From an uncultured Bacteroidales bacterium (GTDB lineage Bacteria; Bacteroidota; Bacteroidia; Bacteroidales; UBA7960), in contig CAZTPA010000001.1 of the NCBI GenBank assembly GCA_964614525.1, positions 152,282 to 216,281 of the forward strand: DNA of 64,000 bases. Direction: 5' to 3'. A model generated the notes under the pieces. The model was not told the origin of the DNA. It saw only the letters and a program-made list of their open reading frames with translations, and ran no database searches. Below, in pieces: positions 47,474 to 63,935 of this stretch (positions are counted from its first letter, which is position 1; the number at the start of each line of letters is the position of its first letter). The position numbers and the translations under genes were made by a program.

Positions 47474-48532
47474 TTACAATCCCTGAAAACTATATCTAAG
47501 TCCAAATCTAAATCCAACTATCATATCTTTCTTGTCATTAATATGATGCTCAAAAATAGGTAAGAAAGGTTTGTATGAATCTATACTATCAGGATTATAA
47601 TTCCATGCAACTGAAGGGCCTGCTATAATATGGATATTTGGAGTAATTGCATAACCAAAACCTGCGGTAAATGAAGTTGTTTGTTGGCAGCTATTTCCAA
47701 GTGTATTTAAAGATACAAGTTCGGGATTAAAAAATAGTGATTCATTTATAGAAATTACAGATCCCATACCTGCACCTACTGCGAATTTCTTTTCAAAACC
47801 TGGATTATAAGATGTAATAAATGAGGTATAAAACATAGGAACCCCTATCTTAAATGATAAGTTAAGAGGATACATTTCATTTACACTAAGTTCTATAGCC
47901 TGATACCCTCCTTTTCTGACGATGGATAAAAAACCAATAGGTAAACCCTCGTCTAATGAATCTGCTAAATTGACAAAACCTATTTGCAAGCCTTTTAGAT
48001 TTCCCGACACATTAACAAAACCGGCCTGTAGGCCTTCAATTTCATCGCGTGCAGCATTAACAAAACCTATTTGCACTCCGGAAATCTTCTCGGAACAAGC
48101 ATTTACAAAACCACTTTGCACTCCTTTTGCCTCCTTTGCCGAAGTATTTACAAAACCAACTTGTACACCTTGTGTAGTATCCGTAATTGTATTAACAAAC
48201 CCATATTGCAAACCTTTAAAAGAAGAGGTTGTTGTATTAACGAATCCAGCTTGAACTCCTTCAGCAGAGCCTCCTGAAGTGTTAACATAACCCAATTGCA
48301 ACCCACTAAAACTCTTATAATTAAAATTTACAAACCCGACATGGGCACTCTTGTGATGCCCCTTAGCTATATTAACAAAGCCAATTAAAGGAGCATTGAA
48401 ACCATCCGGTACAATATTCAAAGCCACCGTATAGATTGTTGTTTCATTTTCTTGTTTTATAGTATCCTGGGCTAATGCCTTTGTGTTAATTAATACGAAG
48501 GCAATAATTAAAGTTTTAAATAAAGTTTTCAT
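47474..48532 (-). CDS. Secreted protein with about 10 tandem 14-15-aa G(V/L)QxGFVN repeats and a C-terminal beta-rich domain
   Basis: The ATG at 48532 gives the signal peptide MKTLFKTLIIAFVLINTKALAQ. Repeats include GLQLGYVNTSGGSAE, GVQAGFVNTTTSSFK and GLQYGFVNTITDTTQ. Confidence 0.55.
   Translation of the reverse strand: MKTLFKTLIIAFVLINTKALAQDTIKQENETTIYTVALNIVPDGFNAPLIGFVNIAKGHHKSAHVGFVNFNYKSFSGLQLGYVNTSGGSAEGVQAGFVNTTTSSFKGLQYGFVNTITDTTQGVQVGFVNTSAKEAKGVQSGFVNACSEKISGVQIGFVNAARDEIEGLQAGFVNVSGNLKGLQIGFVNLADSLDEGLPIGFLSIVRKGGYQAIELSVNEMYPLNLSFKIGVPMFYTSFITSYNPGFEKKFAVGAGMGSVISINESLFFNPELVSLNTLGNSCQQTTSFTAGFGYAITPNIHIIAGPSVAWNYNPDSIDSYKPFLPIFEHHINDKKDMIVGFRFGLRYSFQGL
47920..48350 (-). repeat. 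Tandem 42-45-nt coding repeats (GFVN units)
   Basis: Periodic G(V/L)QxGFVN in the translation. An antisense ORF (47922..48254) is also periodic, which I take to be an artefact of the repeat. Confidence 0.7.
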
Positions 48533-48666
48533 GATAATAAGTTTAATTTGTATTTTTATTAGAATTTGAATAATCCATTTACCGGATATAATTTGCACAA
48601 TGAAATATTGAAAAATTATGTGAAAAAAATTGGAGTAAGCTTAGGAAATATATTGAACCCAAAACA

Positions 48667-49068
48667 TTATAAAAGAATTACTGACAGTACCATAAGAACC
48701 AAGCCGAACACTCCAGCCAATACATCTACAGCCACTATTTTTTTCCCATTATTTTTACTTAGCATATCTGCAACCCATTTTTGAAATTTCTGATAGTTAA
48801 AAATAAAAAAGATAGCTTTGATTGCAGTTAAAGAAAACATTACACTGATAATAACAGAATACTTTATATCAGTAGTCAACTCCATATACCAAGTAAAACC
48901 AACCAATGCTAATCCAATAAGTGCAACAAAAGGTATCCACTTTGGTCTTTTCCCTGAATATGTTTTTGCAATAAATCTGTTTTCATCCCATGGTAAGAGA
49001 TGCATATAAAAAGGTTTCAGAAAAGCTGCCAATCCAAAACCGAGACCTAGAATTTGAAAGTAGTTCAT
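48667..49068 (-). CDS. Small 4-TM membrane protein, function unknown; first gene downstream of the LytTR regulator
   Basis: Four hydrophobic helices in 133 aa. Preceded by the composite motif and a -7 box. Confidence 0.45.
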   Translation of the reverse strand: MNYFQILGLGFGLAAFLKPFYMHLLPWDENRFIAKTYSGKRPKWIPFVALIGLALVGFTWYMELTTDIKYSVIISVMFSLTAIKAIFFIFNYQKFQKWVADMLSKNNGKKIVAVDVLAGVFGLVLMVLSVILL

Positions 49069-49090: not shown

Positions 49091-49157
49091 CAAATTTAGA
49101 TATAGGTTTAGCTAGGTTAAAAAAAAACTAGATGAATGACGAAAAAATCTGTATGAA
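49091..49157 (-). promoter_or_regulatory. Composite promoter, site c: TTCATACAGATTTTTTCGTCATTCA, 34 nt, then TAAATTTG
   Basis: Motif at 49157-49133 and -7 box at 49098-49091 (minus strand), 22 nt before the start at 49068. Confidence 0.55.
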
Positions 49158-49226
49158 CCAGAATAAATGGATACAGGCAACTAATTTTCAAACTCACAAG
49201 ATAGAATAGGAATAAAACCAAATATA

Positions 49227-49991
49227 TTATTCATTTCCTCCGAGCCATTTTTTAAATGAAGAAGTCTTATCTATACTCACTAAGACATCACCTTCAGGCT
49301 TTGGAATAATATTGAGTTTCAATCTGCTAGATGAATAAATATGAACATCTTTAATGGCATTAAGAGCGACGAGCATTTGGCGATTGATTCTAAAAAAACT
49401 TTCTGGATTCAACTCTCCTAAAAGAGCATCAAGGCTAAAATCAACATAATATGAATTGCCATCATACAAATATGCAGTAGTAAAACCTCCTTCACTTTTA
49501 AAATAGCCAATATCTGAAGTTGCAAAGGTCTTTATTCTTTGACCGACTCTGACAGAAAACCTTTCTTTGTAACTTGCATTATTGTTGACTATCAATTTAT
49601 ATAGCTTGTGTAATTCCTGATCAGCATTACTATCAGCTTTTAAGTCATGAAATTTTTTAAGAGCAGCATTAAGTTCTTCTTGAACAATAGGCTTAAGCAA
49701 ATAATCAATACTTTTTAGTTTAAAAGCTTTAATTGCATATTCATCAAAAGCAGTTGTAAAGATGATTGAGCTGTTTATTTTTACATTTTCAAAAATAGTA
49801 AAGCTAAGTCCGTCCTCAAGATGAATATCAAGAAATATAAGTTCCGGTTGCTCATTATTTTCAAACCAATTAATAGAATCCTCAACAGATTCCAATTGAG
49901 CCACTATCTCAATACTTTTGTCATAAGCAAGTATCATTTTCTTTAATCTTTCTGATGCGAGTACTTCATCTTCTATAATTACTACTTTCAT
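49227..49991 (-). CDS. LytR/AlgR-family response regulator (REC + LytTR DNA-binding domain)
   Basis: REC domain (MKVVIIEDE...FLDIHL...KP), C-terminal LytTR (FFRINRQMLVALNAIKDV). Confidence 0.9.
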   Translation of the reverse strand: MKVVIIEDEVLASERLKKMILAYDKSIEIVAQLESVEDSINWFENNEQPELIFLDIHLEDGLSFTIFENVKINSSIIFTTAFDEYAIKAFKLKSIDYLLKPIVQEELNAALKKFHDLKADSNADQELHKLYKLIVNNNASYKERFSVRVGQRIKTFATSDIGYFKSEGGFTTAYLYDGNSYYVDFSLDALLGELNPESFFRINRQMLVALNAIKDVHIYSSSRLKLNIIPKPEGDVLVSIDKTSSFKKWLGGNE

Positions 49992-50015
49992 ATGGAAACT
50001 ATTTTAATTTGTTTT

Positions 50016-52229
50016 TTAGTTTTTAATTAAGGGTATCTTTGCAATAAACTGTTTTTTAGTTATTTCGAACACCGGCTCTTTGCCACAAAGTAACTTATAG
50101 CGTTTGCTAATATTATCCAGTCCAATGCCTGTTGATTTTTTTTGAGTATCTCTATTTTGCAAGTTATTTACAACATTGAGAAAATCATCATCAACAAACA
50201 AATCAACAATTAAAGGACTTTTTTTTGAAAAAGCATTGTGCTTTATTGCATTTTCAATCAGCAATTGCAGAGCCAGAGGAACAACATATAAATCAAGATA
50301 ATCATTGTCGAAGCCAATATTTACGAAAACTTTATTTGCAAACCTAATATCAATTAAAAACACATAAGCTTTTAGAAACTCCATTTCTGTTTTAAGAGTA
50401 ACTATATCTTTATCTTTGTTCTCCAACACATAACGATACACTTTTGATAATCTTTCCGTAAATGTCTCAGCCAGATCGGAGTCAACTTTAATCAATGAAG
50501 TTAATACATTAAGGCTGTTAAATAAAAAATGCGGATTTACCTGCTGTTTTAAAACTTCAAATTGTGACTGCAAATTTTCTTTTTGCATTTTCAATAATTG
50601 AGTATTTGCCATAGTAAGTTGCGTTGTTCTTTCTTCAATCTTATATTCTAAATCTTCATTTAGTTTTTCTAACTCCTGCTTAGCTTCATATAGGGCTTGT
50701 TCCGCAATTTTTTTCTGAGTTATATCTGTTGTAATTCCATCAAGATAAATGACATTCCCTTCGTTATCGCAAACCGGTTGGCCATTTTCATTTATCCACA
50801 CAATTTTTCCATTTTTATGAATTATACGAAATTCTATTGAGTATGGCTTCTTATCTTTAATGCATTCACCTAAATAACGGCTCAAATATTCTAAATCACC
50901 AGGGTAAATAATGTCGGTAAAACTGATATTCTTATTATCTATAAAATCAGTTGCATAGTACCCTGTTATATCGTAAATCTTATCACTGTAAAATTTTGTT
51001 GTAAATTTTTTATCATTTAAGCATCTTGAAACAGCTCCAACAAGGTTTGATATTATATTATTTACTAATCCTTGGGTTTCTTCAAGCTCGATCTCTGCTT
51101 GCTTTTTTAAAGTAATGTCTGTAATAATCCCATCAATGAAAAGGATATTGCCCTTTTCATCATAAATTCCTTTACCAGCTTCATGTACCCATACAACATT
51201 TCCGTTCCTGTGTTTGATTCTGTATTCCAGGTCAAACTGTGTCCTTGCTGTAATTGCTTCAGATATTTGTTGGTCCACAAATTCAACATCATCCGGGAAT
51301 ATTAGTTTATTAAAAGAAATAATATTATTATCAGAAACAATATCCTGAGGTTTATAACCACAAACATCTTCAACTTGATCACTAACAAACAGCATAGTCC
51401 ATTCATCATCAGGTAAGCATCTATATGTAAAACCAAGCAAATTAGAAATAATACTTTTTAACTGTTCTTTGCTCTTTTCAAGTTTACTTGCCAGTATATC
51501 TTTTTTCTTTATTTCATTTGCAAGTTCTTGATTTAATATTTTTTCCTTTTCTATTAGTTGTTTTGCTGATCTGTTCTTCTCATGTTGAAGTTTAATTTCA
51601 GTATCCAACATTGCTTTTTCTTCAGCATGAATTAACTGCTTATTAATAAATTTAAAAACAGAGAATTGAAGATAGATACACAACAAACCAATAAATACTA
51701 AATAAAACGACTTAAACAACTGAGATATGGGAGACAAAGAAAGGAATTGATTATAAAATTCAGGCTGTTGAAAATAGTTTGCAAAATAGATAAGGTTAAA
51801 TCCTATCAGTGCAATGATAATAATATAAATTAAAAGTCCTCTGTCAAGCCTGAAGGTATATATTAGAAAAAAAATCGGCAGAAAAAATATCGTTGCTGCT
51901 GCAGATACTGCAGTGTAATCGGACAAAGCAGCCATGCCATATATATGATAACAAATAACGACAATATCAAGAGTAGCACTTAAAAACTTTAAATATCTGG
52001 GGTCATATTTATTAATCAATACCCAGTGCAAAATTATATTTACTAATATATAGATAAATAATAATGCTATGGCTTGTTTTGATATTAAAGTATGTCCCAT
52101 ATAAAACTGCACAAACAGAAGCACAGTTAATAAAGAAATGAAAGCCCATCTGAAATACACAGATATTCGGAATCCTTTCAAACGTTCCTCCTTCAATAGT
52201 TGTTCGGGGATTTTTATTCTTTTCTCCAC
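50016..52229 (-). CDS. LytS/YehU-type sensor histidine kinase: about 6 TM, coiled coil, 2 PAS, His_kinase/HATPase
   Basis: QQVNPHFLFNSLNVL (PF06580-type H-box), two PAS-like blocks (EYRIKHRNGNVVWVHE and EFRIIHKNGKIVWINE), LIENAIKH N-box. GTG start. It ends 24 nt upstream of the regulator gene start. Confidence 0.85.
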   Translation of the reverse strand: MEKRIKIPEQLLKEERLKGFRISVYFRWAFISLLTVLLFVQFYMGHTLISKQAIALLFIYILVNIILHWVLINKYDPRYLKFLSATLDIVVICYHIYGMAALSDYTAVSAAATIFFLPIFFLIYTFRLDRGLLIYIIIIALIGFNLIYFANYFQQPEFYNQFLSLSPISQLFKSFYLVFIGLLCIYLQFSVFKFINKQLIHAEEKAMLDTEIKLQHEKNRSAKQLIEKEKILNQELANEIKKKDILASKLEKSKEQLKSIISNLLGFTYRCLPDDEWTMLFVSDQVEDVCGYKPQDIVSDNNIISFNKLIFPDDVEFVDQQISEAITARTQFDLEYRIKHRNGNVVWVHEAGKGIYDEKGNILFIDGIITDITLKKQAEIELEETQGLVNNIISNLVGAVSRCLNDKKFTTKFYSDKIYDITGYYATDFIDNKNISFTDIIYPGDLEYLSRYLGECIKDKKPYSIEFRIIHKNGKIVWINENGQPVCDNEGNVIYLDGITTDITQKKIAEQALYEAKQELEKLNEDLEYKIEERTTQLTMANTQLLKMQKENLQSQFEVLKQQVNPHFLFNSLNVLTSLIKVDSDLAETFTERLSKVYRYVLENKDKDIVTLKTEMEFLKAYVFLIDIRFANKVFVNIGFDNDYLDLYVVPLALQLLIENAIKHNAFSKKSPLIVDLFVDDDFLNVVNNLQNRDTQKKSTGIGLDNISKRYKLLCGKEPVFEITKKQFIAKIPLIKN

Positions 52230-52579
52230 TGTTTAATTACTCTCCATACTCTATTAATTGACTAAAATACAATATATTATGCAACATAAAATAATGTATT
52301 CAATTTGTTTAAATTACTTTTTTATAATATTCTCATGGCAAATTTAACAACTAAAAAATTGAAAACTCCACAAATGTAAAGATTGTTATTTTAAAGCAAA
52401 GCGAAACTATTATATCCGCACAGCTTAATACATTATAGACATAACTTAATGCCATATTACATCCGTCATACTGCAGCATATAATCCCGTTTATCAAGATA
52501 AAACTTCAAAGAAAGCAACATACTTCACTTACATATTTGTATAAGCGAGGAAAAACATAGGAAGTATATCATCTTATTA

Positions 52580-53425
52580 TTATTTTCCTAAAACATTACA
52601 ATTGTATTCAACATCAACAGTAATAAATTCACCATAACAAAAATCTTGGTCCGGTCTTTTATAATAAACTTCAGCTCGCTTTGGCAAAGTGTTTCTTCCG
52701 AAGACTCCGAATTCCTTTACGGGTGTATACCATGGCCTTAGGAATGCTTCCTTATTATTAATTTCGTATCTGTCATTGCTAATAAAATCAGTTAGCCAGC
52801 CCTCTTCATTAAAAATCAATTCAGCGCAAATAGTTTGCAAACCATTTGTATAGGTTGCTTTTAGACGTGTATTGCTAATTAGTTCCCAACTAATATTATT
52901 TAAATCAACCAATGCTGCAGGCGCAAAAAAACAAATGTCATTTAAAAATGTGACTGTTTCGCTCTGATTCATTTCCTCCCCAGAAACATCAATAATTTTA
53001 AAAATCCGTGCAAGTTTTATTTTCATATAGGCTTCTCCATCTTGGTACATGTGCAATCCATTTGCCGGAATACCCATTTTTTTTGCCTTTATATAAAATG
53101 CTCGTGTTGGTTTGTCAAAGAAATTGTACTGTTCTGATATAAAATTCATCCATGGCTCATCAGGATTTGAACGCATTCTGCCCTTAAACGTAATTTTCAC
53201 ATTATGCACCCGCTCTTGTCCAACAACACCAGCTAATTTAAGATATCTCTGTAATAATTCAGGCAAGTGTTCAATATCTTGTTCATTAATGATATCTAGA
53301 GGAAATTGTGCTGTTCGAGCTAAGCCCTCATTAACAACATTTTTATAAGTTCGCTTGAGATTCTGGCAAAAAAGGCCATTAATTGAAATTGAAATTAGTG
53401 TCATAATTAATACTATTCTTTTCAT
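52580..53425 (-). CDS. Secreted conserved hypothetical protein (possibly DUF6544-like)
   Basis: The ATG at 53425 gives the signal peptide MKRIVLIMTLISISINGLFCQ. The LPELLQRYLKLAGVVGQERVHNVKITFKGRMR segment resembles that family from memory only. Confidence 0.4.
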   Translation of the reverse strand: MKRIVLIMTLISISINGLFCQNLKRTYKNVVNEGLARTAQFPLDIINEQDIEHLPELLQRYLKLAGVVGQERVHNVKITFKGRMRSNPDEPWMNFISEQYNFFDKPTRAFYIKAKKMGIPANGLHMYQDGEAYMKIKLARIFKIIDVSGEEMNQSETVTFLNDICFFAPAALVDLNNISWELISNTRLKATYTNGLQTICAELIFNEEGWLTDFISNDRYEINNKEAFLRPWYTPVKEFGVFGRNTLPKRAEVYYKRPDQDFCYGEFITVDVEYNCNVLGK

Positions 53426-53587
53426 TATATATTCTTTTTGAAACTGATTCAATTCACGGCAACAATCTCCTTATATTAAGCATTATTGCTTTTTGAATTT
53501 GTTAATAAAGCATTATGAATAGCAGGGATGTATGCCTATGCTAAAAAAGCATTCAACATTAATTCATTTCTGGATTCACCAAAATTG

Positions 53588-53773
53588 TTAGTCTTGCTTT
53601 TTTTTATTTTTCACATTGCCCAACATAGCTCCTGACACAATACCTAAACCGGCTCCAACTCCTGCAAATATGGGGGCATAAATTGGATTAGATATGATTA
53701 ATCCAAGACCAAACCCAATTGCAACACCCATGATCAAACCAAGACCAACATATTTTTTATTTTCTTTTTCCAT
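53588..53773 (-). CDS. 61-aa glycine-zipper two-TM membrane peptide
   Basis: MEKENKKYVGLGLIMGVAIGFGLGLIISNPIYAPIFAGVGAGLGIVSGAMLGNVKNKKKQD: charged ends and GxxxG-rich helices. A frameshifted paralog lies at 58647-58852. Confidence 0.5.
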   Translation of the reverse strand: MEKENKKYVGLGLIMGVAIGFGLGLIISNPIYAPIFAGVGAGLGIVSGAMLGNVKNKKKQD

Positions 53774-53928
53774 TTTATCATATTATTAAGACAAAGAATA
53801 TTTTTTAAATCTATGCATAACTACAGTTCTAATAAGAATACATTATTGTAGATGTCTGAAGCTGTGATTTATAAGCCTTAAAATGGTTTTATAAAACTCA
53901 TTATTAATGAATGACTGATTTTTTGTTT

Positions 53929-55047
53929 TTAATGACACGATATAGCTTTTAGTGCTTTTTCTTTAACAATAGAATTAAACTTATCCACTTCTTCCATACA
54001 AGGGCTATGAGCTGAATTCTCAAAAGTAAAAAATTCTTTCACAGGAGCGTCCATTTGGTCGAAGAAGTCTTTAGCCACAGTATACGATGTTTGGTAATCA
54101 TTAATTCCGTTAAAAATATAAACAGGTATTTGCATGCTGTCAATATGGTTAAATAGGTTAGTATTTATTACCTCCATCCAAAGATTTTCAAGGCAAAACA
54201 TGCTTGAATTCATGAAGTTTAGTTTTTCACGGAAAGTATATTCAGGAGAGTAAAGTACAATCTTGACCAAAGGCCACATGCCTGTTATTTCGCGGGTAAC
54301 GCCTCCTCCAAATTTACTTACATACCTTCTTTCCACCATTAAAAAGTCTATCCACTCCTTAACTGTTGCAGTTGAGTCAGGAAAACTAAGCTTTGACAAA
54401 GTTGAGATTGCGGATTGGTCATTTTTTAGTTTTGCCTGTTCCTTAACCCATTCAAAAGATACTTTTTCGGCTTGATATTGGTCTGCAACCTGCCCAATGC
54501 CATAGTATGCATAATAAAGTTCAGGGTGTTTGTATGCGGTGAGTATCCCCAAAAATGAACCCCAGGAATGTCCCATTAAGAAAAGTTTCTCTTGATTGAA
54601 GCGTTTTATAAGGTATTCACTTAATTCTTGCGTATCAGAGATCATTTGCTCAAGCGTCATGCTCTCCGGAGGTATGTTTTTTGAGAATGATTTGCCGGCT
54701 CCTCTTTGCTCCCAGTAAACCATTACATAGTCATTTTCAATATCCCTATTGAAATGTTTCATAAATGCAGCTTCAGGGCTTCCGGGACCACCATGCAGAA
54801 ATAGCATCACAGGCTTAGTTTTATCTACGCCACGAATAATTAAATACTGATCCAAACCTCCGAGATTAATCGTTATAATCTCAGATATACTTCCTTCAAT
54901 TGTTTCTCCCCGGGCATCCTTAATTAGGTCTGACTTCCCGGGACTTTTTGCCCATAAGATTATGGCTAATATACCAACAATCAAAATAGCTCCACCAAGT
55001 AAATACGAAACTATTTTTGCTGCTTTCTTAAAAATCTTTTTTGCCAT
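53929..55047 (-). CDS. Membrane-anchored alpha/beta hydrolase (proline-iminopeptidase-like, S33-type)
   Basis: N-terminal TM, HGGPG oxyanion motif, GHSWGS nucleophile elbow, C-terminal His region. Confidence 0.8.
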   Translation of the reverse strand: MAKKIFKKAAKIVSYLLGGAILIVGILAIILWAKSPGKSDLIKDARGETIEGSISEIITINLGGLDQYLIIRGVDKTKPVMLFLHGGPGSPEAAFMKHFNRDIENDYVMVYWEQRGAGKSFSKNIPPESMTLEQMISDTQELSEYLIKRFNQEKLFLMGHSWGSFLGILTAYKHPELYYAYYGIGQVADQYQAEKVSFEWVKEQAKLKNDQSAISTLSKLSFPDSTATVKEWIDFLMVERRYVSKFGGGVTREITGMWPLVKIVLYSPEYTFREKLNFMNSSMFCLENLWMEVINTNLFNHIDSMQIPVYIFNGINDYQTSYTVAKDFFDQMDAPVKEFFTFENSAHSPCMEEVDKFNSIVKEKALKAISCH

Positions 55048-55146
55048 GTGATTTTGTTTAAATAATGTATAAATTTAAATTACATTGTTTTAATTCTTAC
55101 TTTACTCAAATATTTGTCATTTTGAAATTCAAAGCTATATCTTTTT

Positions 55147-55608
55147 TTAGATCAACAGCCATGCTGATAAAAGTCCGAACATTATGCTGTACATTATTGC
55201 TTCAAGCTGGATCGTCCAAAAAACTCTTTTTTCGACAAACTCTTTCTTCAAATAAACAAAGCCTTCAATGGTATTAGAGAAAGGGATTGCACTGGCAAAA
55301 TCAGCATAAACAAACATCAAGGAAGCCATAAAAACAAACTGCATCCCAAAAGAAAGTTCTCCCAAAAACGGAAGAATCGGGTACAGAACCATAGACATAA
55401 TAATTCCTCTTACAAACTGGGAAGGTAACATAAGTTTAGCAATTCGCATGCTTTCTTTCTTGTCGTCCATGTCTCTGAAAAAAGACTTGTACAAACGGTT
55501 TTTACCTGAATAAAACTTTTTTGAAAGTTGAAAATCAATAACTCCTGCCATAATATAGCAGGCTAAATGAATTGCAAAAAACAGGAAACTGAAAATTACA
55601 TAAGTCAT
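55147..55608 (-). CDS. Hypothetical 4-TM membrane protein
   Basis: 153 aa and hydrophobic. Its start is 15 nt after the stop of the upstream serine hydrolase gene, so it is probably co-transcribed. Confidence 0.4.
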   Translation of the reverse strand: MTYVIFSFLFFAIHLACYIMAGVIDFQLSKKFYSGKNRLYKSFFRDMDDKKESMRIAKLMLPSQFVRGIIMSMVLYPILPFLGELSFGMQFVFMASLMFVYADFASAIPFSNTIEGFVYLKKEFVEKRVFWTIQLEAIMYSIMFGLLSAWLLI

Positions 55609-55623
55609 GATTATTGAAACTTT

Positions 55624-56706
55624 TTAGTTGTTACTATATTTTATTAGCTCTCTGATCACTTTCCTAAGCATAAATTGCAAAGCTTTTGAAGTATATGAAA
55701 TATCGTTAAATGTTCCTATTATATATGATTCTGTTAATGGATGGTAAAACATAAAAGCACCTGTAACACCAACTCCACCCCAACAAAAATATTTTTTCGG
55801 GAGTAATACCGGAATTGCCTTTGGCTTCCATATAGAATATCCGTAATCAAAGGCAATGGCAGGCAAACCCATTTTTACATCATCATAAATCATTTTATTA
55901 AGAGTGCTTTCTTTCACGAGTTTATGAGTCACCAGTGCCTTCATAAAAACCAGGTATTCCTCCAGGGGAGCTACAACGCCTCCACCGGCGTAATCAATCT
56001 GTGCAAAACGTACATCTTCAATACAATTAAGGTTCTCAACATGCACTCCAGCAGTTGGAAACTGAGATTCAACTTTTGGCTTTGAATATCCAAACATATA
56101 AGCTCTATTCATGCCTAATGGCTCAAAAATCATTTCATGCAAAACTTCATGATAAGGTACTTTTGTAAGACTTTCGATAATCAAGCCAAGTAAATAATAA
56201 TTAGTATCTGTATAAAAATGCTTTTCACCGGGTTTTCCTATGGGTTGCAAATTGTTTTTGCTCCATATTACAGCCTCTTTTGGAGTAATTTTAAACTCAG
56301 GGTCGTTTTTTAATTTATTTAACAAGTGGTAAAAAACATCATTTAATCCGGATGTTTGTTTTAGCAAATTCTTTACAGTTATCTCACCTGAATAGTCTAC
56401 GCCTTTAAAAATATGTAGGCCACTCATTATCTCTGAATCAAGGTAATTATTGATTTTTGCCTCATAGTCCAAAACTCTCCGCTCGTGCAACATTCCGATT
56501 ATCGTTGCGGTGAATAACTTGCCAACAGAAGCCAGGTAATTTGGTTGCTGATTATTAGCAGGAAAATTTCCGGTTGCTCCTTCTGCAATATTAATATCAA
56601 TACCAAGTTTTTCAGAATTCACAAGTAAGTATGCATTTTTGACATTTTTGTCTTTTCTTGCTATTTTTCTAAAATTTTCTTCAATTTTAAGCTGAGCTTT
56701 CATCAC
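55624..56706 (-). CDS. Beta-lactamase-fold serine hydrolase (class C/esterase-like), no signal peptide
   Basis: SxxK motif (ASVGKLF) and a YxN-like YTDTNY. 360 aa with a hydrophilic N-terminus. Confidence 0.8.
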   Translation of the reverse strand: MMKAQLKIEENFRKIARKDKNVKNAYLLVNSEKLGIDINIAEGATGNFPANNQQPNYLASVGKLFTATIIGMLHERRVLDYEAKINNYLDSEIMSGLHIFKGVDYSGEITVKNLLKQTSGLNDVFYHLLNKLKNDPEFKITPKEAVIWSKNNLQPIGKPGEKHFYTDTNYYLLGLIIESLTKVPYHEVLHEMIFEPLGMNRAYMFGYSKPKVESQFPTAGVHVENLNCIEDVRFAQIDYAGGGVVAPLEEYLVFMKALVTHKLVKESTLNKMIYDDVKMGLPAIAFDYGYSIWKPKAIPVLLPKKYFCWGGVGVTGAFMFYHPLTESYIIGTFNDISYTSKALQFMLRKVIRELIKYSNN

Positions 56707-56753
56707 AATTTTATTTACTTCCTAATCTAAATAGATTGCTTTATTAAACATTT

Positions 56754-56820
56754 CAAAAATATATACAAACATTTAATGAGGTAACAAAAACCTGGTGAAT
56801 GACGGAATTTTATGGTTGAA
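56754..56820 (-). promoter_or_regulatory. Composite promoter, site a: TTCAACCATAAAATTCCGTCATTCA, 34 nt, then TATTTTTG
   Basis: Motif at 56820-56796 and -7 box at 56761-56754 (minus strand), 47 nt before the start at 56706. Confidence 0.55.
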
Positions 56821-56915
56821 TCAGGGAAAATGGCCTTTCTTATACGGAAGCCGATTGCGATAAAGTGCTGAAAGCTTACTAATAGAAAACAATCTGCATA
56901 GCGGCGACACAATGT

Positions 56916-58601
56916 CTATCTCCTCACAAACTTCACGTTTTGTAATCTTCCAATGTCCAACATCACAAAGCCAATTACATCCTTATCGGAATTGCGGGTG
57001 AATTCAACCATGCCAAAACGGTCGGTTGCAAAAATGTTTCCGTTTACGTGATTTAAAGGGATAATTGATGCTCTAAAGTATCTTTCAAAAGTTGCCGGAG
57101 GAATTATTTTCAGCTGTTCATCCTCAAAAATAACATTGTAATCAGTGCTCAAATCCGGATGGTAATAATCTCCGGCAAAAGAGGCAATTTCTTCAATTGA
57201 CAGAAGCACCTTTTCAGATGTTCTTGATGCATGATAATCGTTTCCTCCTTGATGCCATATGATTTCATTTACTTCTCCATCGGAACCATCAATAAAAGTT
57301 ACCTGTGCGTCAAAGTCTTTTAAAAAGAATTCGTTATCACTCTCGGCAAATAGCTCAAATTTTTGATCTCCCGGTAAAAGTAGCCAAAATGTATCCAATT
57401 CAAAAGCAAATTCAAGTTCCATTCCATCAGGCATTTTATAGTTTCCAGCATATTTTTCAATTTTTTCATAGTTAAGATCAACAGCAATTCTTGGGGCTAC
57501 TTCTTTTACAAAAATTCTATCAGCAAGAAACAGCTCAGCAACTCCGGTAGCAATTGCGCGTGAGTTTATGCTTTCATTATTGAGCATAGTAATAACTACA
57601 AGCTCATCATCAGGGAAAATCGTAATGCGACTTCTGAATCCCGGAATGCCTCCACTGTGTGAAACCATTTTTACACCTTTGTAAGTGGAAACATAAAAGC
57701 CGTATGTATAAGACAAGCTGTCACCATTTTCAAGGGTGTTGTATTTGGTTAGCATCCTGTTGACAAGTTCATGACCTCCAACTTTAGGAGTTATAAAGTT
57801 CTGACCCCAATTAATCATATCGTTGAGACTGGCAAATATATTACCTTGTCCATAGCTATAATCTTCGGAAGAGCTAATTAAAACAGCTTTATCATCAAGC
57901 ATTTCATATCCAAATGCAGTGTTTTTCTGTTCAATATCAGGGCTATAGTAAATTATTGCTGTTTCCATCGACAAAGGAGTGAAAACATTTTTCTTCAGAA
58001 AACCAGGAAGGGGCATTCCACTCGCAGAATTAACTATTTCAGCCAGGAGGGAGTAGCCTGAGTTTGAATAAACATGCTTGGTATTTGGCTCGAAATTAAG
58101 ACAGGAATATTTATAAATAATATCAATCTCATCCTGCTGTGTCCATTTAACATCAAATGGAATCCCGGATAGAAGCCTTAACCAATCAGTTGATGCGACT
58201 CCGCTTGTATGTTGCATCAGATGCCTCACAGTTATTATATGTCCGTAATCAGGCATATCAGGCAGGTAATACCTGATGTCCCTGTCAAGTTCAATTTTAC
58301 CATCCTGCTCGAGTAGCAAAATAGCAAAAGCAGTAAACTGTTTTGCAACAGATGCTATATCGAAAAGAGTTGTTTCGGTAATAGCTTTGTTATTTTCGAC
58401 ATCCATAATCCCAAAGCTTTTCTTCACTACTACGTCGCTACCCGATATTACACCAATTACTCCTCCCGGCTGACCGGCAGTGTGCTGCAAAGAAATGATT
58501 GAATCGATCTTTTGAGATAGATTTATTGGTTTTGACACTGCTCTTGCATTCATAACTACAGTTATGCTTATCACTGCAATTAAAAAATTCTTCGTTTTCA
58601 T
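56916..58601 (-). CDS. Secreted beta-lactamase-fold serine hydrolase with two C-terminal lipocalin-like (DUF3471-type) domains
   Basis: Signal peptide, SxxK (IASVAKQF), YSNSGY, HSGGIPG. The C-terminus has two YAGNY/FAGDYY-initiated modules. Confidence 0.85.
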   Translation of the reverse strand: MKTKNFLIAVISITVVMNARAVSKPINLSQKIDSIISLQHTAGQPGGVIGVISGSDVVVKKSFGIMDVENNKAITETTLFDIASVAKQFTAFAILLLEQDGKIELDRDIRYYLPDMPDYGHIITVRHLMQHTSGVASTDWLRLLSGIPFDVKWTQQDEIDIIYKYSCLNFEPNTKHVYSNSGYSLLAEIVNSASGMPLPGFLKKNVFTPLSMETAIIYYSPDIEQKNTAFGYEMLDDKAVLISSSEDYSYGQGNIFASLNDMINWGQNFITPKVGGHELVNRMLTKYNTLENGDSLSYTYGFYVSTYKGVKMVSHSGGIPGFRSRITIFPDDELVVITMLNNESINSRAIATGVAELFLADRIFVKEVAPRIAVDLNYEKIEKYAGNYKMPDGMELEFAFELDTFWLLLPGDQKFELFAESDNEFFLKDFDAQVTFIDGSDGEVNEIIWHQGGNDYHASRTSEKVLLSIEEIASFAGDYYHPDLSTDYNVIFEDEQLKIIPPATFERYFRASIIPLNHVNGNIFATDRFGMVEFTRNSDKDVIGFVMLDIGRLQNVKFVRR

Positions 58602-58646
58602 GATTATTGTGTTTTATGTTTTTTGATTAATTATAAAATTTCCGAT

Positions 58647-58852
58647 TTAAAAACAAGCCTCCGCCGCCCTATAATGATGAATCCTCTCTGTAGCGATTAT
58701 TTTGATAATTCCGCACAACACCAATCCGGCTCCAACTAATTCAAATACGGGGCATAGGTTGGATTATATATAATTAATCCAAAACCAATTGCAAGTCCTA
58801 AAATTAATCCAAATCCAATATATTTGGTGCTTTGTTTATTATCTTTTAGCAT
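58647..58852 (-). pseudogene. Frameshifted paralog of the 61-aa glycine-zipper peptide gene
   Basis: MLKDNKQSTKYIGFGLILGLAIGFGLIIYNPTYAP then a stop. Shifting one base restores FELVGAGLVLCGII.... Aligned against 53588-53773, one base is missing just after TATGCCCC. Length is 206 nt (3n-1). Confidence 0.5.
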
Positions 58853-58877
58853 TTTATCAAATTTTAAAGCATAAAAA

Positions 58878-59786
58878 TTATTTTAAATCAATATTTTTAA
58901 AGAAAATATCTTCTTTACTTATGTATTTATCATAAAGCAGAAACAACAAAGTGATTACTGAAAGGGCTATAAACCCGGCCAACCCGGTGGAACCTATCAT
59001 TAATTCATTACCACCTTTCAGTGTCATAATAGAAATACCTATTGTACCATTTAATGTTCCATGCATAATTGCAGCAGCAATTACCGATTTCGCTTTGATT
59101 GTTATATAAAGGAAAAGCGGACTTAGTAATATACACCATACTATCATCATAAGCACTCCAAAGACAGGATATGTTGGATAATTATGTCCCATTAATATAA
59201 GTGGTGAATGCCAGATGCCCCATACCAAACCAATAATCAATGCAGCTTTCATAAATTTTTGATTTTCAAACCGCCTAACAAGAAAACCTCTCCAACCAAG
59301 CTCTTCACCAAAGCCTGCAACAGCATTAATGGTTATACCGGCAAATAAACCTTGTATCAAAGCTATCCATATAGGATGAAAGGGCATTATTTCCATAGAT
59401 TCTTTCATTTCCCTCATTTGATCAGGAGTTAAAATGCTTTCAAATCTATCAAACATTCCCTCCATACCGGGCGAAAAGCTAACATCCGGAAAAAGCAAAG
59501 CTATTCCCATTGCAACAAAAGCGATTACAGGGGTAATTAGCCATGCAACCACAAACCATTTATTAATTCTAAAAGATATGAGCAATTTCTTTTTTATTGC
59601 TTCCTTGTATATCAGTTTTTCAATAATTAAAACTGAAATAGTTGGAATAAACATGTAAAAAATTGCTAAGATTATTCCGGCAGTAGAATCATATTTTGCT
59701 CCGGAAAAATAGAAAGTGCCTGCTGAAATTAAACTTATCACAGCGACAATAACATAAAATAAATTTGTTTTGCTTATTGTTTTCAT
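58878..59786 (-). CDS. CPBP-family intramembrane glutamic endopeptidase (CAAX protease / Abi family)
   Basis: GFGEELGWRGFL, WGIWH and AIMHGTLN motifs in an 8-TM protein. Confidence 0.85.
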   Translation of the reverse strand: MKTISKTNLFYVIVAVISLISAGTFYFSGAKYDSTAGIILAIFYMFIPTISVLIIEKLIYKEAIKKKLLISFRINKWFVVAWLITPVIAFVAMGIALLFPDVSFSPGMEGMFDRFESILTPDQMREMKESMEIMPFHPIWIALIQGLFAGITINAVAGFGEELGWRGFLVRRFENQKFMKAALIIGLVWGIWHSPLILMGHNYPTYPVFGVLMMIVWCILLSPLFLYITIKAKSVIAAAIMHGTLNGTIGISIMTLKGGNELMIGSTGLAGFIALSVITLLFLLYDKYISKEDIFFKNIDLK

Positions 59787-59869
59787 GACTTCAAAAATTA
59801 TTTGTGTTGAAACAATGTTATTCAGTAAAAATTATAAAACTATTTCTTATAAACGCTATTATATTACTT

Positions 59870-61108
59870 TTATATGCTCCTAATAAAACTGTTCAATGCT
59901 TGCGAAAGATCAACAAGCTTGGAACAATCAATAATGGATATTCTGTCCTTGTCAGTATGAGTGATATCCTGATCGTAATTGTCCAGCAACCATTCGGATG
60001 TAATTGCAATAGCGGGCCTATCTCTCTGAACAAAAATACTATGATCACCTTGTGGCCATGGCTGACCTTTAACAATACCAGGGAAGTCACGCATTACCTT
60101 AACAGCTTTTTTTTCTTGATTTTCGGATAAATCAAAGAAAGAGAAAGATGTTTTGCCAATTTTATAACCGGGACCATCAATATTTATATTTAGCATTATT
60201 TCTTCAAACTTATCTCTATTAGCTTGAATATAGTTCATTTGCCCTGGATTTGAATAATAATCTTCGCCATTTAGAGCAACCATTTCAATGCATTTATCAC
60301 CTGAGTAATCACTTAGCAAATCGGCCAGAAGCAGCATTGTGACAACACCTGAAGCATTATCCAGAGCACCCGGTGTTCCGCTTTTAGTATCAATATGGGC
60401 TGTAATAACTACTTTTTCACCTGAAGTATTTCCTTTTCGACCAATTACATTATTGGCTTTGCTATTAATTCGTTCTGAATAAATATTTAATTGGGCTTCC
60501 TGACCTTCAAATTGACAAAGCTTACTGCCTTCTTCTTCAGTCAAATAAACAGAAGGTATATTAAAGTCGCCATCTTCAATAAGAGGGAATGGATAAACTC
60601 CGCCGGCAAGAGCAACATTTCTACCTGTAGCGCATATTATTGCTTTTGCACCACTATTTTCCAACAATGAAACTATTTTCTTATGATTATCCGGATTATA
60701 AAAAACAAAATTTTTTGGCATAAGCTGTTCACTGGCAATCTCTCCTTTGAGAAGCAACACAGTATTGTTGAAATTCCCATTCTCAAGTTCTGATATTTTT
60801 TCAACTACTTTCAATGGTGCATTTACTGAGCATCCCAGAGAATATGGGCTAACAAAAACATTAAAGCCAGAACCATTAAGGCTTAATTCTGCTCCATTTT
60901 GCTTCCAATCAATTACCGCGAATTCGGGTATTTCAATATCCCAACCCAAAAAATCAAATTCCTCTTTTAACAGGTCTGTTGCCTTTCTGTTAGCGTCACT
61001 GCCAACAGGTCTTTCGCCAATATCATCACAAATAGCTCTTAAAAAAGATAAACACTTTACATTTAAATACATCGCCTTCATTTCAAATATTTTTTTTAAA
61101 AAAACCAT
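59870..61108 (-). CDS. M28-family metallopeptidase (aminopeptidase-like), no signal peptide
   Basis: VITAHIDTKSGTPGALDNASGVVTMLLLA (metal ligands H, D), NGEDY, and a later H region. Confidence 0.75.
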   Translation of the reverse strand: MVFLKKIFEMKAMYLNVKCLSFLRAICDDIGERPVGSDANRKATDLLKEEFDFLGWDIEIPEFAVIDWKQNGAELSLNGSGFNVFVSPYSLGCSVNAPLKVVEKISELENGNFNNTVLLLKGEIASEQLMPKNFVFYNPDNHKKIVSLLENSGAKAIICATGRNVALAGGVYPFPLIEDGDFNIPSVYLTEEEGSKLCQFEGQEAQLNIYSERINSKANNVIGRKGNTSGEKVVITAHIDTKSGTPGALDNASGVVTMLLLADLLSDYSGDKCIEMVALNGEDYYSNPGQMNYIQANRDKFEEIMLNINIDGPGYKIGKTSFSFFDLSENQEKKAVKVMRDFPGIVKGQPWPQGDHSIFVQRDRPAIAITSEWLLDNYDQDITHTDKDRISIIDCSKLVDLSQALNSFIRSI

Positions 61109-61173
61109 AAATACTTATTGCAAAAAGCTTTTGGTATTTATGGTTTTCATAATTATACAATTTAGTTTCAGTA

Positions 61174-61240
61174 CAAATATGCTTATCGCTGTTCCATTTA
61201 AAAAATAATTGCTTGTGAATGACGGAATTTCTTCCATGAA
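61174..61240 (-). promoter_or_regulatory. Composite promoter, site b: TTCATGGAAGAAATTCCGTCATTCA, 34 nt, then CATATTTG
   Basis: Motif at 61240-61216 and box at 61181-61174 (minus strand), 65 nt before the start at 61108. Confidence 0.5.
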
Positions 61241-61264: not shown

Positions 61265-63724
61265 TTACAACAGACCTCCGCCTCCTTGAGGAGTAGCATC
61301 ATCTTCTTTGCGACGATTTTGATAATTATTAATTTTATAACTCAAAGTGAGCATCACAATTTGTTGTTCCATGTTATAGATAAAGTTTGTACTACTTCCT
61401 TCATCAAAAGCTTCAAAAGAATAAACCATAGTTTTAAATACATCACGTACACTAAGGGTGATATTTAATTGCTTCTCAAATAACTCTTGGCTAAGCGCTA
61501 CATTCATTCCAAATATAGCATTGCTTGTGCCTTGATGAGTGATTCCGGGACTATTATAAAAACCAGTGAGTTGAAAACGTGTCCCTTTAACAGGTATTAC
61601 ATTTGCATTTAACATCAAATTATATCTTAACGTACTCATATCAGCATCTCTATAGCTGTTCTCTGTATTTATTGTATAATTAAAAATATTTGCAGTTGCA
61701 TATAAACTTAAATATTTTGCAAGGCTCATATTAGAAGATAACTCGACACCATATGCCAGTGTTTCATCAATATTTTCATGATTAATAAGTGTTCTTCCAT
61801 CATCCATCAAGCTGATATTTTGAGAAAAGCTATTGTAGTTTTGACGATAATAAGCTTCTCCTGAGATAAAACCTAACTTATTATATTTCATATAGTTCAG
61901 CTCATAAGAATTGGTAAACTCCGGAAGTAATCCTGGATTTCCTGATTGAGCCAAATAAGCATCTGAATATACTTCAAGTGGATTTAACAACCATATTTCA
62001 GGTCTGTTGATTCTGCGGCTATAGCTTAGCTGCAGTTGCTGATTATGAGGCAAAGGTTTGGAAATATGAACTGTAGGAAATAGATTAATTTTATCATATT
62101 TATAATCCTGACCGGCAAACATCATTCTGTCAGTATATTCAGCTCTTAAACCAGCCTGATATTGAAAACCTTTTACCTCACCGTTAAAGGTACTATATAG
62201 TGAATGTATGTGTCTGTCATACAAAATATTATTAGAAAAATCAGGATTCTCATTCCAAATATCTTGCTCATTATTATAATCAAATTTTTTAAAAGCATTG
62301 GTTTCATCTTTTAACCTGTACTGATAACCAGCTTCAAATTTAAATTGTTCTGTAAAGGATTTTGTATAATCAGACTTAAACCTCAGTTCGTAATTATCAC
62401 TTTTATTTGTTGTTTTGTAATAATCTGTATTTATAATTGTTTGTCCGGCTTCATCAGTGACATGGTCATTTATTTCCGTAGAATTGCCTCCATCCCATTT
62501 TGAAACATAAACTGAGGATACTAGCTTTGAATCTTCAGAAACATCATGATCATAATATAAGCTACCATTAACATATTGACCACCAATAAGTAAAGTTGAG
62601 ATAGTATTTTTAAAAAATTCAAGGTCATTTGGCTTTGTTATTTCATTAACATCAGCATCCATTAATAATGTATTTCCCCAATGGCCAAACTCACCATTTA
62701 AAGTTATCATATTTCCATTATCCAAATAATAATCAACACCACCAGAAATAGCATATGGATTATTGTTTTCCTGTCTCTCAGTGTATTGATATACGTATCT
62801 TGTTGAGTTTTCAAAATCTGTTTCATTAATAATTTCTGTATGCGGATACCTTGGTCTTTCAGCATATCGACCACTTAGGAAGTAATTGAATTTATTTTTT
62901 CGGTAATTAACGGCAAAGTCGCCACTACGTTTCCAGGATGTACCTGCAGCAAGATTTAAAAGGCTGTTAAATCCGTCTGTATGATTCTTTTTCATAACAA
63001 TGTTTATAATACCGGCTGTTCCATCCGGATCATATTTGGCAGAAGGATTAGTAATTATCTCTATTTTCTCAACTGCAGATGCAGGAATTTGCCTTAATGC
63101 TTCTGATCCGCTAAGCGGGCTGGGTTTGCCGTCTATCAAAACAATAAAGGAGCTGCTACCTCGTAATAGAACATTCCCCTCAGCATCCAGATTTATTGAG
63201 GGATTGTTTTCTAAGGCTTCTATAACAGTACCCCCGGCTGATTGAAGATTCTTATCAATATTCAAAACTTTTTTATCCACTCTGTATTCCATCGCACTCT
63301 TCTCTGCAGTTATCTCAACTTCATTCAACAACTCATAAGCTTTTTTAAGGAAAACAGGTCCTAAATCTAAACTTTTGGTTTTATTATCTATGGTAATGTC
63401 CTCTATAATTGTCTTAGTATAACCCATGAAATTTACCTCAAGAAAATAATTTCCGGAAGGAACTTGTTCCAGAAGAAAAACACCGGAATCATTAGTAATT
63501 GTACCTGTCACAAGACTAGATTCTGCCTCTTTGAATAATGCTACAGTGGCATACGGAATTAATCCGGAATCATCTGCATCTATTACTTTGCCGGAAATTC
63601 CTTTGCTTATTTCGGAGACAGAATTGCCTGTCTCACCATAAGTTGGATTTATAGAAAAAAGGACCAACAAGAAAAAACTAACAACTAACAGTTTTATCTT
63701 ACTAAAAAATTTAAAAATCTTCAT
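61265..63724 (-). CDS. TonB-dependent-receptor-like outer membrane beta-barrel protein with carboxypeptidase-regulatory-like N-domain
   Basis: Signal peptide, ISGKVIDADDSGLIPYATVALF (CarbopepD_reg-like), plug-like segment (GGTVIEALENNPSINLD...VLLRG) and a long barrel. Confidence 0.8.
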   Translation of the reverse strand: MKIFKFFSKIKLLVVSFFLLVLFSINPTYGETGNSVSEISKGISGKVIDADDSGLIPYATVALFKEAESSLVTGTITNDSGVFLLEQVPSGNYFLEVNFMGYTKTIIEDITIDNKTKSLDLGPVFLKKAYELLNEVEITAEKSAMEYRVDKKVLNIDKNLQSAGGTVIEALENNPSINLDAEGNVLLRGSSSFIVLIDGKPSPLSGSEALRQIPASAVEKIEIITNPSAKYDPDGTAGIINIVMKKNHTDGFNSLLNLAAGTSWKRSGDFAVNYRKNKFNYFLSGRYAERPRYPHTEIINETDFENSTRYVYQYTERQENNNPYAISGGVDYYLDNGNMITLNGEFGHWGNTLLMDADVNEITKPNDLEFFKNTISTLLIGGQYVNGSLYYDHDVSEDSKLVSSVYVSKWDGGNSTEINDHVTDEAGQTIINTDYYKTTNKSDNYELRFKSDYTKSFTEQFKFEAGYQYRLKDETNAFKKFDYNNEQDIWNENPDFSNNILYDRHIHSLYSTFNGEVKGFQYQAGLRAEYTDRMMFAGQDYKYDKINLFPTVHISKPLPHNQQLQLSYSRRINRPEIWLLNPLEVYSDAYLAQSGNPGLLPEFTNSYELNYMKYNKLGFISGEAYYRQNYNSFSQNISLMDDGRTLINHENIDETLAYGVELSSNMSLAKYLSLYATANIFNYTINTENSYRDADMSTLRYNLMLNANVIPVKGTRFQLTGFYNSPGITHQGTSNAIFGMNVALSQELFEKQLNITLSVRDVFKTMVYSFEAFDEGSSTNFIYNMEQQIVMLTLSYKINNYQNRRKEDDATPQGGGGLL

Positions 63725-63935
63725 AGCTTAAATATTTAAAATGAATAAATGATATTTTGAACTTTGTAATATATGACAGACTCTTTATACCCAAAACATA
63801 CTCTTTAAACAACTTATTTGTTATTAGAGGTATATTTTTAAAGAATTCACGCGTAAGACGTAAGATGTCTTAAAAAGTTACTTTATTGAATACATTTAAT
63901 AATTTTTAAGCAATTTTAATCTGCGTTGACTACTT

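Follow-up and report, generated by a model that had tools for sequence, protein, structure and literature searches.

Do the direct repeats that precede several gene units of an uncultured Bacteroidales bacterium form the operator of the two-component system encoded among them? The locus lies in a 64-kb stretch of contig CAZTPA010000001.1 (hereafter the window; 33% G+C), where a composite motif, two TTCA-containing half-sites followed at a constant distance by a promoter box, recurs on the minus strand around genes for a LytS-type sensor kinase and a response regulator with a LytTR domain (Table 1). An earlier note, made from the sequence of the window alone, had proposed that three such units constitute a LytTR regulon. 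Comparative evidence from other genomes supported this proposal and added a probable fourth promoter. Based on this evidence, we estimate a probability of about 0.8 that the adjacent kinase and regulator use the repeats as their operator, with the regulator binding them and activating the promoters.

The pattern TTCA-N12-CGTCATTCA was found exactly three times in the window (sites a, b and c), always on the minus strand, and in none of 100 dinucleotide-preserving shuffles; the exact 9-mer CGTCATTCA was confined to these same sites. The coordinates and sequences reported in the earlier note were all correct on re-reading, as were the threefold occurrence on one strand and the 16-nt core common to sites a and b (AAATTCCGTCATTCAC), the flanks of which are unrelated. 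The half-sites, named DR1 and DR2 (direct repeats 1 and 2), recur with a period of 21 bp wherever the motif stands in the window, and the same period was seen at 31 sites from other genomes. Site c lies 70 nt downstream of the stop codon of the regulator gene. Chance similarity, or descent from a dispersed repeat or from the end of a mobile element, might be considered for such a motif, given that many phyla commonly have tandem arrays of 7-bp and 21-bp units that contain GTCATTCA. Against this stand the shuffles and the unrelated flanks, the intergenic, directional and gene-proximal location of the sites, and their conservation across Bacteroidota families with fixed promoter spacing. Combined with the strand bias and the conserved footprints described below, these observations effectively refute an origin by chance or from a dispersed repeat.

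A box of the Bacteroidota primary-sigma −7 type, TAnnTTTG, starts exactly 34 nt after the motif at all three sites, as the earlier note had observed, and is followed by a start codon 22–65 nt further downstream. The fixed offset is not an effect of base composition, because A..TTTG fills just 0.26% of the positions of the window, and its occurrence at one fixed offset in three cases out of three has a chance probability of about 2 × 10−8. TTTG was present at the same offset in 17 of 31 non-window sites. A T-run is also conserved upstream of the −7 box: counted from the motif, TTT occupies +11 to +13, which places it 20 nt ahead of the box, and the best column shows it in 29 of 34 sites. This is where a −33 TTTG would be expected (about 19–21 nt upstream of the −7 box), but just 10 of the 34 sites have G as the fourth base, indicating that the −33 element is degenerate and not missing. 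The three window sites carry the T-run without a correctly placed G; the −33 region, in which the earlier note had seen no TTTG at the spacing of the tetR promoter, is thus not empty. The matrix derived from the sites reads c[A/G]TTCAtc for DR1 and cCGTCATTCAtc for DR2, followed by TTT and then by TAnnTTTG. These promoters share with the primary-sigma promoters of Bacteroidota (−33 TTTG, −7 TAnnTTTG) a good −7 box shortly upstream of the gene, and differ from them in the T-run at −33 and in the fixed activator-type operator joined 10 bp upstream of it. A scan for sigma-70 promoters and terminators gave counts not above those of shuffled sequences, its consensus being inapplicable to Bacteroidota. 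An Rfam scan of the whole window gave no match, so the conserved blocks are not explained by a known RNA element.

The two blocks could also be read as a promoter for a sigma factor of the extracytoplasmic function (ECF) group, with TTCA as the −35-like and CGTC as the −10-like element. CGTC is the classic core of ECF −10 elements, and the motif is directional and located upstream of genes. However, the blocks are 12 nt apart as opposed to the ca. 16–17 nt of ECF spacers, both hold an ATTCA(t)c unit and thus constitute a direct repeat, and the primary-sigma −7 box conserved exactly 34 nt downstream would be needless for an ECF promoter. In addition, the cluster revealed no gene for a sigma or anti-sigma factor, and the linkage of the motif is to the LytTR regulator. 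An ECF promoter, rejected here on the spacing, the repeat nature of the blocks and the conserved −7 box, is therefore very improbable.

Pfam and NCBIfam searches confirmed that a LytTR regulator and its kinase are encoded between the sites. The regulator contains a receiver domain (REC; PF00072, 44.1 bits) and a LytTR domain (PF04397, residues 152–250, E = 1.1 × 10−14, 54.9 bits versus a cutoff of 22.6), and its residue D55, within the sequence FLDI, aligns with the phospho-acceptor D53 of Escherichia coli YpdB. The kinase gene, 24 nt away from the regulator gene, encodes a multi-pass membrane N-terminus, a coiled coil, two PAS domains and a histidine kinase domain (PF06580, 82.5 bits) in which the H-box NPHFLFN and QVNPHFLFNSLN are present, as in kinases of the LytS/YpdA type. 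No Pfam match to the LytS sensor module (5TM-Lyt membrane domain plus GAF) was obtained for the kinase, whose N-terminal membrane region has no assigned family and precedes the PAS domains. The membrane domain is conserved across clades, and the PAS domains are present in some lineages only. No second LytTR regulator or LytS-type kinase was found in the window. When the regulator was compared with PDB sequences, only receiver-domain matches came back, because its LytTR domain is too divergent to be found in this way.

LytTR regulators typically bind two repeats of 9–11 nt with 11–13 nt between them (PMC4847170), and the repeats described here have this geometry. In the validated YpdB site of E. 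coli, GGCATTTCAT is repeated directly every 21 bp, and the yhjX promoter fragment contains CGTCATTCAT one 21-bp period upstream of two mapped YpdB sites (PMC4847170). The half-site cGTCATTCAt is similar to GGCATTTCAT and, given also the CGTCATTCAT copy, it resembles a validated LytTR site. The likeness to YpdA/YpdB (PyrS/PyrR) includes the PF06580 LytS-type kinase, the REC plus LytTR regulator with its aligned phospho-acceptor Asp (replaced in the phosphomimic D53E of YpdB; PMC4847170) and the direct repeat of a ca. 10-nt unit upstream of a promoter that is activated in the case of yhjX and predicted to be activated here. By contrast, identity is low (28% for the regulator, 29% for the kinase core), the kinase combines two PAS domains with a membrane domain unlike that of YpdA, and the promoter context is the −33/−7 type of Bacteroidota. 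Whereas YpdB has a single target, a major facilitator superfamily (MFS) transporter (PMC4847170), several promoters for envelope hydrolases, peptidases and outer-membrane proteins would be served here, and no LrgAB, CstA or MFS genes are among the predicted targets in the window. Scores of the regulator were far below the NCBIfam equivalog cutoffs for LytR (94.6 versus 375 bits) and BtsR (93.6 versus 246), indicating that none of LytR, BtsR and YpdB is its orthologue. At the family level, the system is of the LytS/LytTR two-component type of the YpdAB/BtsSR kind, with a predicted LytTR operator.

A different comparison, with AgrA, ComE and PlnC, had been drawn in the earlier note. In Firmicutes, AgrA, ComE and PlnC/D recognize two 9-bp direct repeats with a spacer of about 12 bp, located just upstream of the promoters that they activate, and are often autoregulated. 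The analogy stands for the repeat geometry, but half-site sequences differ, and the kinases of those systems are of the AgrC/ComD (HPK10) type, in contrast to the PF06580 kinase found here. Neither a pheromone precursor, nor processing or export genes, nor an AgrC/ComD-type kinase appeared among the Pfam and NCBIfam assignments of the cluster. This system is not a pheromone circuit of the Agr/Com/Pln type.

A search with the regulator in 185,579 species genomes yielded 80 loci, amounting to 1.3 Mb (loci and stretches from other genomes are designated by L-numbers). The closest were Bacteroidales metagenome bins from sediment, with 79% identity, and others came from Prolixibacteraceae, Rikenellaceae, Lentimicrobium, Chitinophagaceae and further groups. 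The exact pattern derived from the window occurred 9 times in these loci, compared with about 0.04 expected matches, in all 9 cases on the strand of the regulator gene. When one mismatch was allowed, 31 non-window sites were found, 29 of them on the regulator strand. Sites were usually located just after the regulator gene, as site c is, or just before the kinase gene. Some contained a full or near-full second copy of the half-site (e.g. CGTCATTCA-N12-CGTCATTCG), and L001, L004 and L092 contained three phased half-sites, confirming the reading of the motif as a direct repeat with a 21-bp period. Matrix hits of at least 20 bits favoured the regulator strand by 33 to 5, and 38 out of 41 were outside open reading frames (ORFs) of at least 120 amino acids, although such ORFs cover 85% of this DNA. 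Random orientation and occurrence inside coding regions, two patterns that the earlier note had named as speaking against a regulatory motif, were thus not what was observed.

The opposite search started from the motif. The composite pattern TTCA-N12-CGTCATTCA-N35-A-NN-TTTG, with 18 specified bases, was scanned in 596 Gb of sequence, for which ca. 17 chance matches are expected at even base composition. Matches were found in 89 stretches, of which ca. 70 belonged to Bacteroidota and one to Ignavibacteria, the other ca. 18 being scattered singly over unrelated phyla at the level of chance. At least 15 of the 89 stretches, each 8 kb long, contained an orthologue of the regulator (48–88% identity) with its kinase, when only about 0.3 co-occurrences, i.e. 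fewer than one, would be expected if motif and regulator were unrelated (our own estimate for 8 kb in a genome of ca. 4 Mb). The closest relative, L168, has a regulator 88% identical and a kinase 80% identical to those of the window and the same gene order, and its motifs precede an LA_2272 gene and the orthologue of the 133-amino-acid membrane protein encoded behind site c. Among cultured isolates, Paracnuella aquatica N24 (L048) and Flavihumibacter stibioxidans YS-17 (L052) have the motif together with the regulator, and the motif is also present in Flavisolibacter ginsengisoli DSM 18119 (L144). The link of the motif to the adjacent regulator was therefore obtained in both directions, the regulator leading to the motif and the motif to the regulator.

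Orthologous promoters were aligned for the M28 peptidase of unit b (five genomes), the 133-amino-acid protein of unit c (two) and the serine hydrolase of unit a (two). Conservation was limited to DR1, DR2, the T-tract and the −7 box, outside which the sequences had diverged. Site b is conserved before the M28 orthologues of L160, L004, L003 and L092, with the same −7 box throughout the five-genome alignment; the orthologues of site c in L168 and of site a in L161 (34.3 bits) are embedded in diverged flanks. Conservation in orthologous loci, a check that the earlier note had suggested, was thus found for the half-sites and the −7 box of all three promoters. The distribution of the motif was then compared to a neighbour-joining tree of more than 90 regulator homologues. 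The motif accompanied 15 of the 16 regulators in the clade of the window, most of those in a Prolixibacteraceae-type clade and 8 out of 9 in a Chitinophagaceae clade. A large sister clade showed one match among ca. 24 members, a dubious one inside an ORF, and the Flavobacteriia and Cytophagales clades showed none. In the Mariniphaga bin 30dZY2.bin.126, which has two paralogues of the regulator, the motif is present near one (L141) and not near the other (L037). Motif presence tracks regulator phylogeny in three clades, and the motif, with its fixed promoter geometry and its conservation, is linked both genomically and phylogenetically to the lineage of this regulator.

The gene family most frequently found behind the motif in other genomes was a TonB-dependent-like receptor with CarboxypepD_reg, Plug and OMP_b-brl_3 domains (16 sites). 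The kinase-regulator operon came first at 10 sites and the regulator was included in motif-driven gene strings at 17, suggesting autoregulation. These were followed by M28 peptidases (5 sites), small outer-membrane beta-barrels (4), CAAX proteases (3–4, including L053, L056 and L149), LA_2272 repeat proteins (3) and alpha/beta hydrolases (3). Single cases comprised a TolC-like protein, a MacB/FtsX permease, a MATE transporter, a LiaF-like protein, DUF3795, a TetR regulator, DUF4932 and a VWA protein.

In the mechanism that we propose, a phosphorylated dimer of the regulator would bind the two direct half-sites, which lie 21 bp apart and face the same side of the helix; of these, cCGTCATTCAtc, nearer to the promoter, would be the strong one and the distal c[A/G]TTCAtc the weaker. 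If TAnnTTTG is the −7 element, the pair would span from about −76 to −47, ending 10 bp upstream of the degenerate −33 and 34 bp upstream of the −7. At that position, wholly upstream of a weak −33 element as is proper of an activator, the regulator may recruit RNA polymerase to primary-sigma promoters that would otherwise be weak. Three units would be driven in this manner in the window, and probably a fourth, with products that are mostly envelope proteins. Alternatively, the regulator could bind to sites that act mainly as repressing or dual-function operators, and the three phased half-sites of L001, L004 and L092 could serve such a more complex control. Yet the sites are located entirely upstream of −33 and never overlap −33, −7 or the start region, their spacing to the −7 box is rigid, and a −33 element as degenerate as this one is typical of activator-dependent promoters, all of which makes a mainly repressing or dual-function role quite unlikely.

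The candidate for the fourth promoter, site d, was detected by the position-weight-matrix scan. It has a T-run at the −33 position and, at the −7 position, TATAAATC, which is a poor match that departs from TAnnTTTG. Homologues of the DUF6544 gene located behind it are found in motif-driven operons of four other loci, and weak sites directly precede the kinase gene in L003 and L161. These observations support site d, and the local regulon probably includes a promoter there. This promoter would weakly drive a small membrane peptide and the DUF6544 protein, possibly with read-through into the kinase and regulator genes, which would amount to autoregulation. As to the signal, we can only guess, with low confidence, at an envelope or membrane-associated cue, since the membrane domain is what is conserved in the kinase and most of the products belong to the envelope.

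Several observations weigh against the explanation favoured here. Five more stretches (L093, L115, L134, L139 and L165) hold a distant LytTR regulator with 27–29% identity beside the motif, and many regulator homologues with 52–57% identity have no motif within 10 kb. In the window, there is no recognisable site directly upstream of the kinase gene, the −7 box of site d is poor, and the TonB-dependent-receptor-like gene, the commonest target elsewhere, lacks a site, with no motif at 63725–64000. In addition, the matrix was trained on the loci that it scanned, so that the exact-pattern counts alone are non-circular. It can thus be asked whether the sites are real cis-elements bound by some other factor, be it a LytTR paralogue from another part of the genome or an unrelated direct-repeat binder, for example of the AraC type. 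The distant regulators, found in contigs of Chryseobacterium, Saprospiraceae and Flammeovirgaceae, imply that specificity may be shared among paralogues and that an unseen LytTR protein could bind; moreover, most genome-wide matches have no regulator within the 8 kb retrieved, and the visible part of the source genome amounts to 64 kb. On the other hand, the single LytTR regulator of the window sits amid the sites, its orthologues co-occur with the motif far more often than expected in stretches selected by the pattern alone, the presence of the motif follows the clades of this same regulator, and there is no AraC or other DNA-binding gene in the cluster. Binding by another factor is consequently unlikely, and the adjacent regulator is retained as the probable binder.

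A broader reading, which we favour with less assurance than the local one, is that of a promoter class extending across the phylum. A LytTR lineage present in at least three clades (Bacteroidales, Prolixibacteraceae and Chitinophagaceae) would use one rigid cassette, c[A/G]TTCAtc-N11-cCGTCATTCAtc-N10-TTT-N21-TAnnTTTG, to control itself and an envelope regulon made up of the CarboxypepD_reg/OMP_b-brl_3 receptor, peptidases, hydrolases, CAAX proteases and efflux components. Systems of the LytS/LytTR type occur throughout Bacteroidota, and osmotic induction of gene pairs of this type has been described in a study of Bacteroides thetaiotaomicron. In the literature searched, neither this motif or operator nor a LytTR regulon of any kind had been described for Bacteroidota, the sole relevant items being the study just mentioned and the YpdB paper (PMC4847170), and the full texts searched gave no defined operator, regulon or signal for these systems in the phylum. 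If the broader reading is true, no earlier LytTR operator and regulon would have been defined in the phylum, and the cassette would amount to a portable promoter module that depends on a signal. The conserved operator would offer a handle for binding probes and reporter design, allow regulons to be predicted in any genome of these clades, and show, as few worked examples do, where an activator sits at −33/−7 promoters of Bacteroidota. An envelope or peptide-related response is suggested by the predicted regulon, with its outer-membrane receptor, peptidases, CAAX proteases and efflux parts. The accepted view of how LytTR regulators act is left unchanged, and the mechanism is not a surprising one.

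The genes concerned form part of a 17-kb stretch that is entirely co-directional on the minus strand. The receptor gene comes first, followed by unit b (M28 peptidase, CAAX protease, beta-lactamase-fold plus DUF3471 protein), unit a (serine hydrolase, 153-amino-acid protein, alpha/beta hydrolase), site d with the 61-amino-acid peptide and DUF6544 genes, the kinase and regulator genes, and unit c (133-amino-acid protein, LA_2272 protein, a 193-amino-acid protein and further genes). Most products of the stretch have signal peptides or membrane segments. Pfam searches bore out the serine hydrolase, M28 peptidase, REC plus LytTR and PAS plus kinase identities given in the earlier note. The protein behind site c, described there as having four transmembrane segments, is hydrophobic and multi-pass in character by its sequence, so probably a multi-pass membrane protein, and no Pfam family stands behind it.

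Table 1. Repeat sites, promoter elements and genes of the locus, in window coordinates.
Feature	Coordinates	Strand	Description
Site a	56820-56796	minus	TTCAACCATAAAATTCCGTCATTCA; DR1 tgATTCAac, DR2 cCGTCATTCAcc; 31.1 bits, top-scoring window site
Site b	61240-61216	minus	TTCATGGAAGAAATTCCGTCATTCA; DR1 ctATTCAtg, DR2 cCGTCATTCAca; 28.0 bits
Site c	49157-49133	minus	TTCATACAGATTTTTTCGTCATTCA; DR1 ggTTCAta, DR2 tCGTCATTCAtc; 24.8 bits
Site d (candidate, weak)	53932-53908	minus	GTCATTAA-N13-GTCATTCA; 19.0 bits
−7 box, promoter a	56761-56754	minus	TATTTTTG
−7 box, promoter b	61181-61174	minus	CATATTTG
−7 box, promoter c	49098-49091	minus	TAAATTTG; ends 22 nt before ATG at 49068
−7 position, site d	53873-53866	minus	TATAAATC
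T-run at −33 position, promoter b	61205-61200	minus	
T-run at −33 position, promoter c	49127-49119	minus	
Response regulator	49227-49991	minus	REC + LytTR (Pfam); proposed binder of the repeats
Sensor histidine kinase	50016-52229	minus	PAS, PF06580
Unit a, serine hydrolase	55624-56706	minus	Beta-lactamase fold (Pfam)
Unit a, 153-aa membrane protein	55147-55608	minus	
Unit a, alpha/beta hydrolase	53929-55047	minus	Membrane-anchored (Pfam)
Unit b, M28 peptidase	59870-61108	minus	Pfam
Unit b, CAAX/Rce1-like membrane protease	58878-59786	minus	Pfam
Unit b, beta-lactamase-fold + DUF3471 protein	56916-58601	minus	Exported (Pfam)
Unit c, first gene, 133-aa hydrophobic protein	48667-49068	minus	No Pfam or NCBIfam family
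LA_2272-family surface-repeat protein	47474-48598	minus	374 aa (NCBIfam)
61-aa Gly-rich membrane ORF	53588-53773	minus	First ORF after site d
DUF6544/DUF6920 protein	52580-53452	minus	Exported, signal-peptide-like N-terminus (Pfam); between site d and kinase gene
TonB-dependent-receptor-like outer-membrane protein	61265-63724	minus	CarboxypepD_reg + Plug + OMP_b-brl_3 (Pfam)

Relatives retain parts of these units. In L161, the same motif precedes genes for the serine hydrolase (82% identity) and the 153-amino-acid protein (88%), each of which is also present in L114; the 133-amino-acid protein has a 73% identical orthologue behind the same motif in L168. The LA_2272 gene is probably co-transcribed with the gene for the latter protein, and no motif was found in its upstream intergenic region in the window, whereas its orthologues in L168, L123 and L002 have a motif of their own. 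The receptor gene is placed differently in close relatives: the order is motif, M28 and receptor in L160 and L003, and in the window and L092 the receptor gene is upstream of the M28 promoter. This indicates a local rearrangement that removed the receptor gene of the window from obvious control by the motif. Past promoter b, an ATG at ca. 61150 on the minus strand opens an ORF of only 11 codons (ATGAAAACCATAAATACCAAAAGCTTTTTGCAATAA) ahead of the M28 start at 61108. Relatives have an ATG aligned at ca. 61150, which may be the true M28 start; in the window, the start may have shifted, or the short ORF could be an upstream mini-ORF.

Some loci of the regulator and motif searches showed further peculiarities. 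In L134 and L165, both from Chryseobacterium, the motif lies between a divergent VWA-domain gene and a kinase-regulator operon. In the motif-less regulator homologues, neither 7-mer counts nor reading revealed any convincing shared motif downstream of the gene. A variant half-site, C(C)GGCATT(C/T)A, nearer to GGCATTTCAT of E. coli YpdB, was noticed in L013, L023, L060/L061 and L071/L073, which belong to motif-negative clades, and in L060/L061 and L071/L073 a CAAnTTTG box follows it at the same 34-nt offset. These sequences hint that clades may have changed one or two operator bases inside a conserved promoter frame. Regulator homologues with 45–55% identity were present in L017, labelled Chloroflexota, and in L059, L062 and L065, labelled Desulfobacterota. 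The latter three lack the motif; L017 has both the motif and a TonB-dependent-like receptor and is therefore probably a mis-binned Bacteroidota contig.

A scan for the perfect direct repeat GTCATTCA-N12-CGTCATTCA was also made and set aside as uninformative, since its matches (at least 120 stretches) were mostly 7-bp or 21-bp tandem arrays plus chance matches from many phyla. None of the 144 matches listed had a −7 box at +34, which agrees with the matrix in indicating that functional sites have a degenerate distal half-site. Long heptamer arrays of the form (TCATTCG/TCATTCA)n occur commonly in Bacteroidales bins from rumen and gut, with examples in Prevotellaceae and Bacteroidaceae contigs (L190, L196, L203, L204, L225, L240, L248, L260 and others), and 21-bp tandem arrays containing GTCATTCA were seen in other phyla (L174, Kuenenia; L189; L244; L262). 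The 302-nt contig NZ_WHPF01000059.1 of the Chitinophagaceae isolate Limnovirga soli KCS-6 (L227, positions 1–302) consists in its entirety of tandem 21-bp units, each carrying a strong half-site (CCGTCATTCATCAAAYTTGCT), and gives at least 8 overlapping matches to the pattern. Its candidate LytTR half-sites are perfectly phased, and the array could be a multi-dimer operator, a decoy or a mere satellite repeat.

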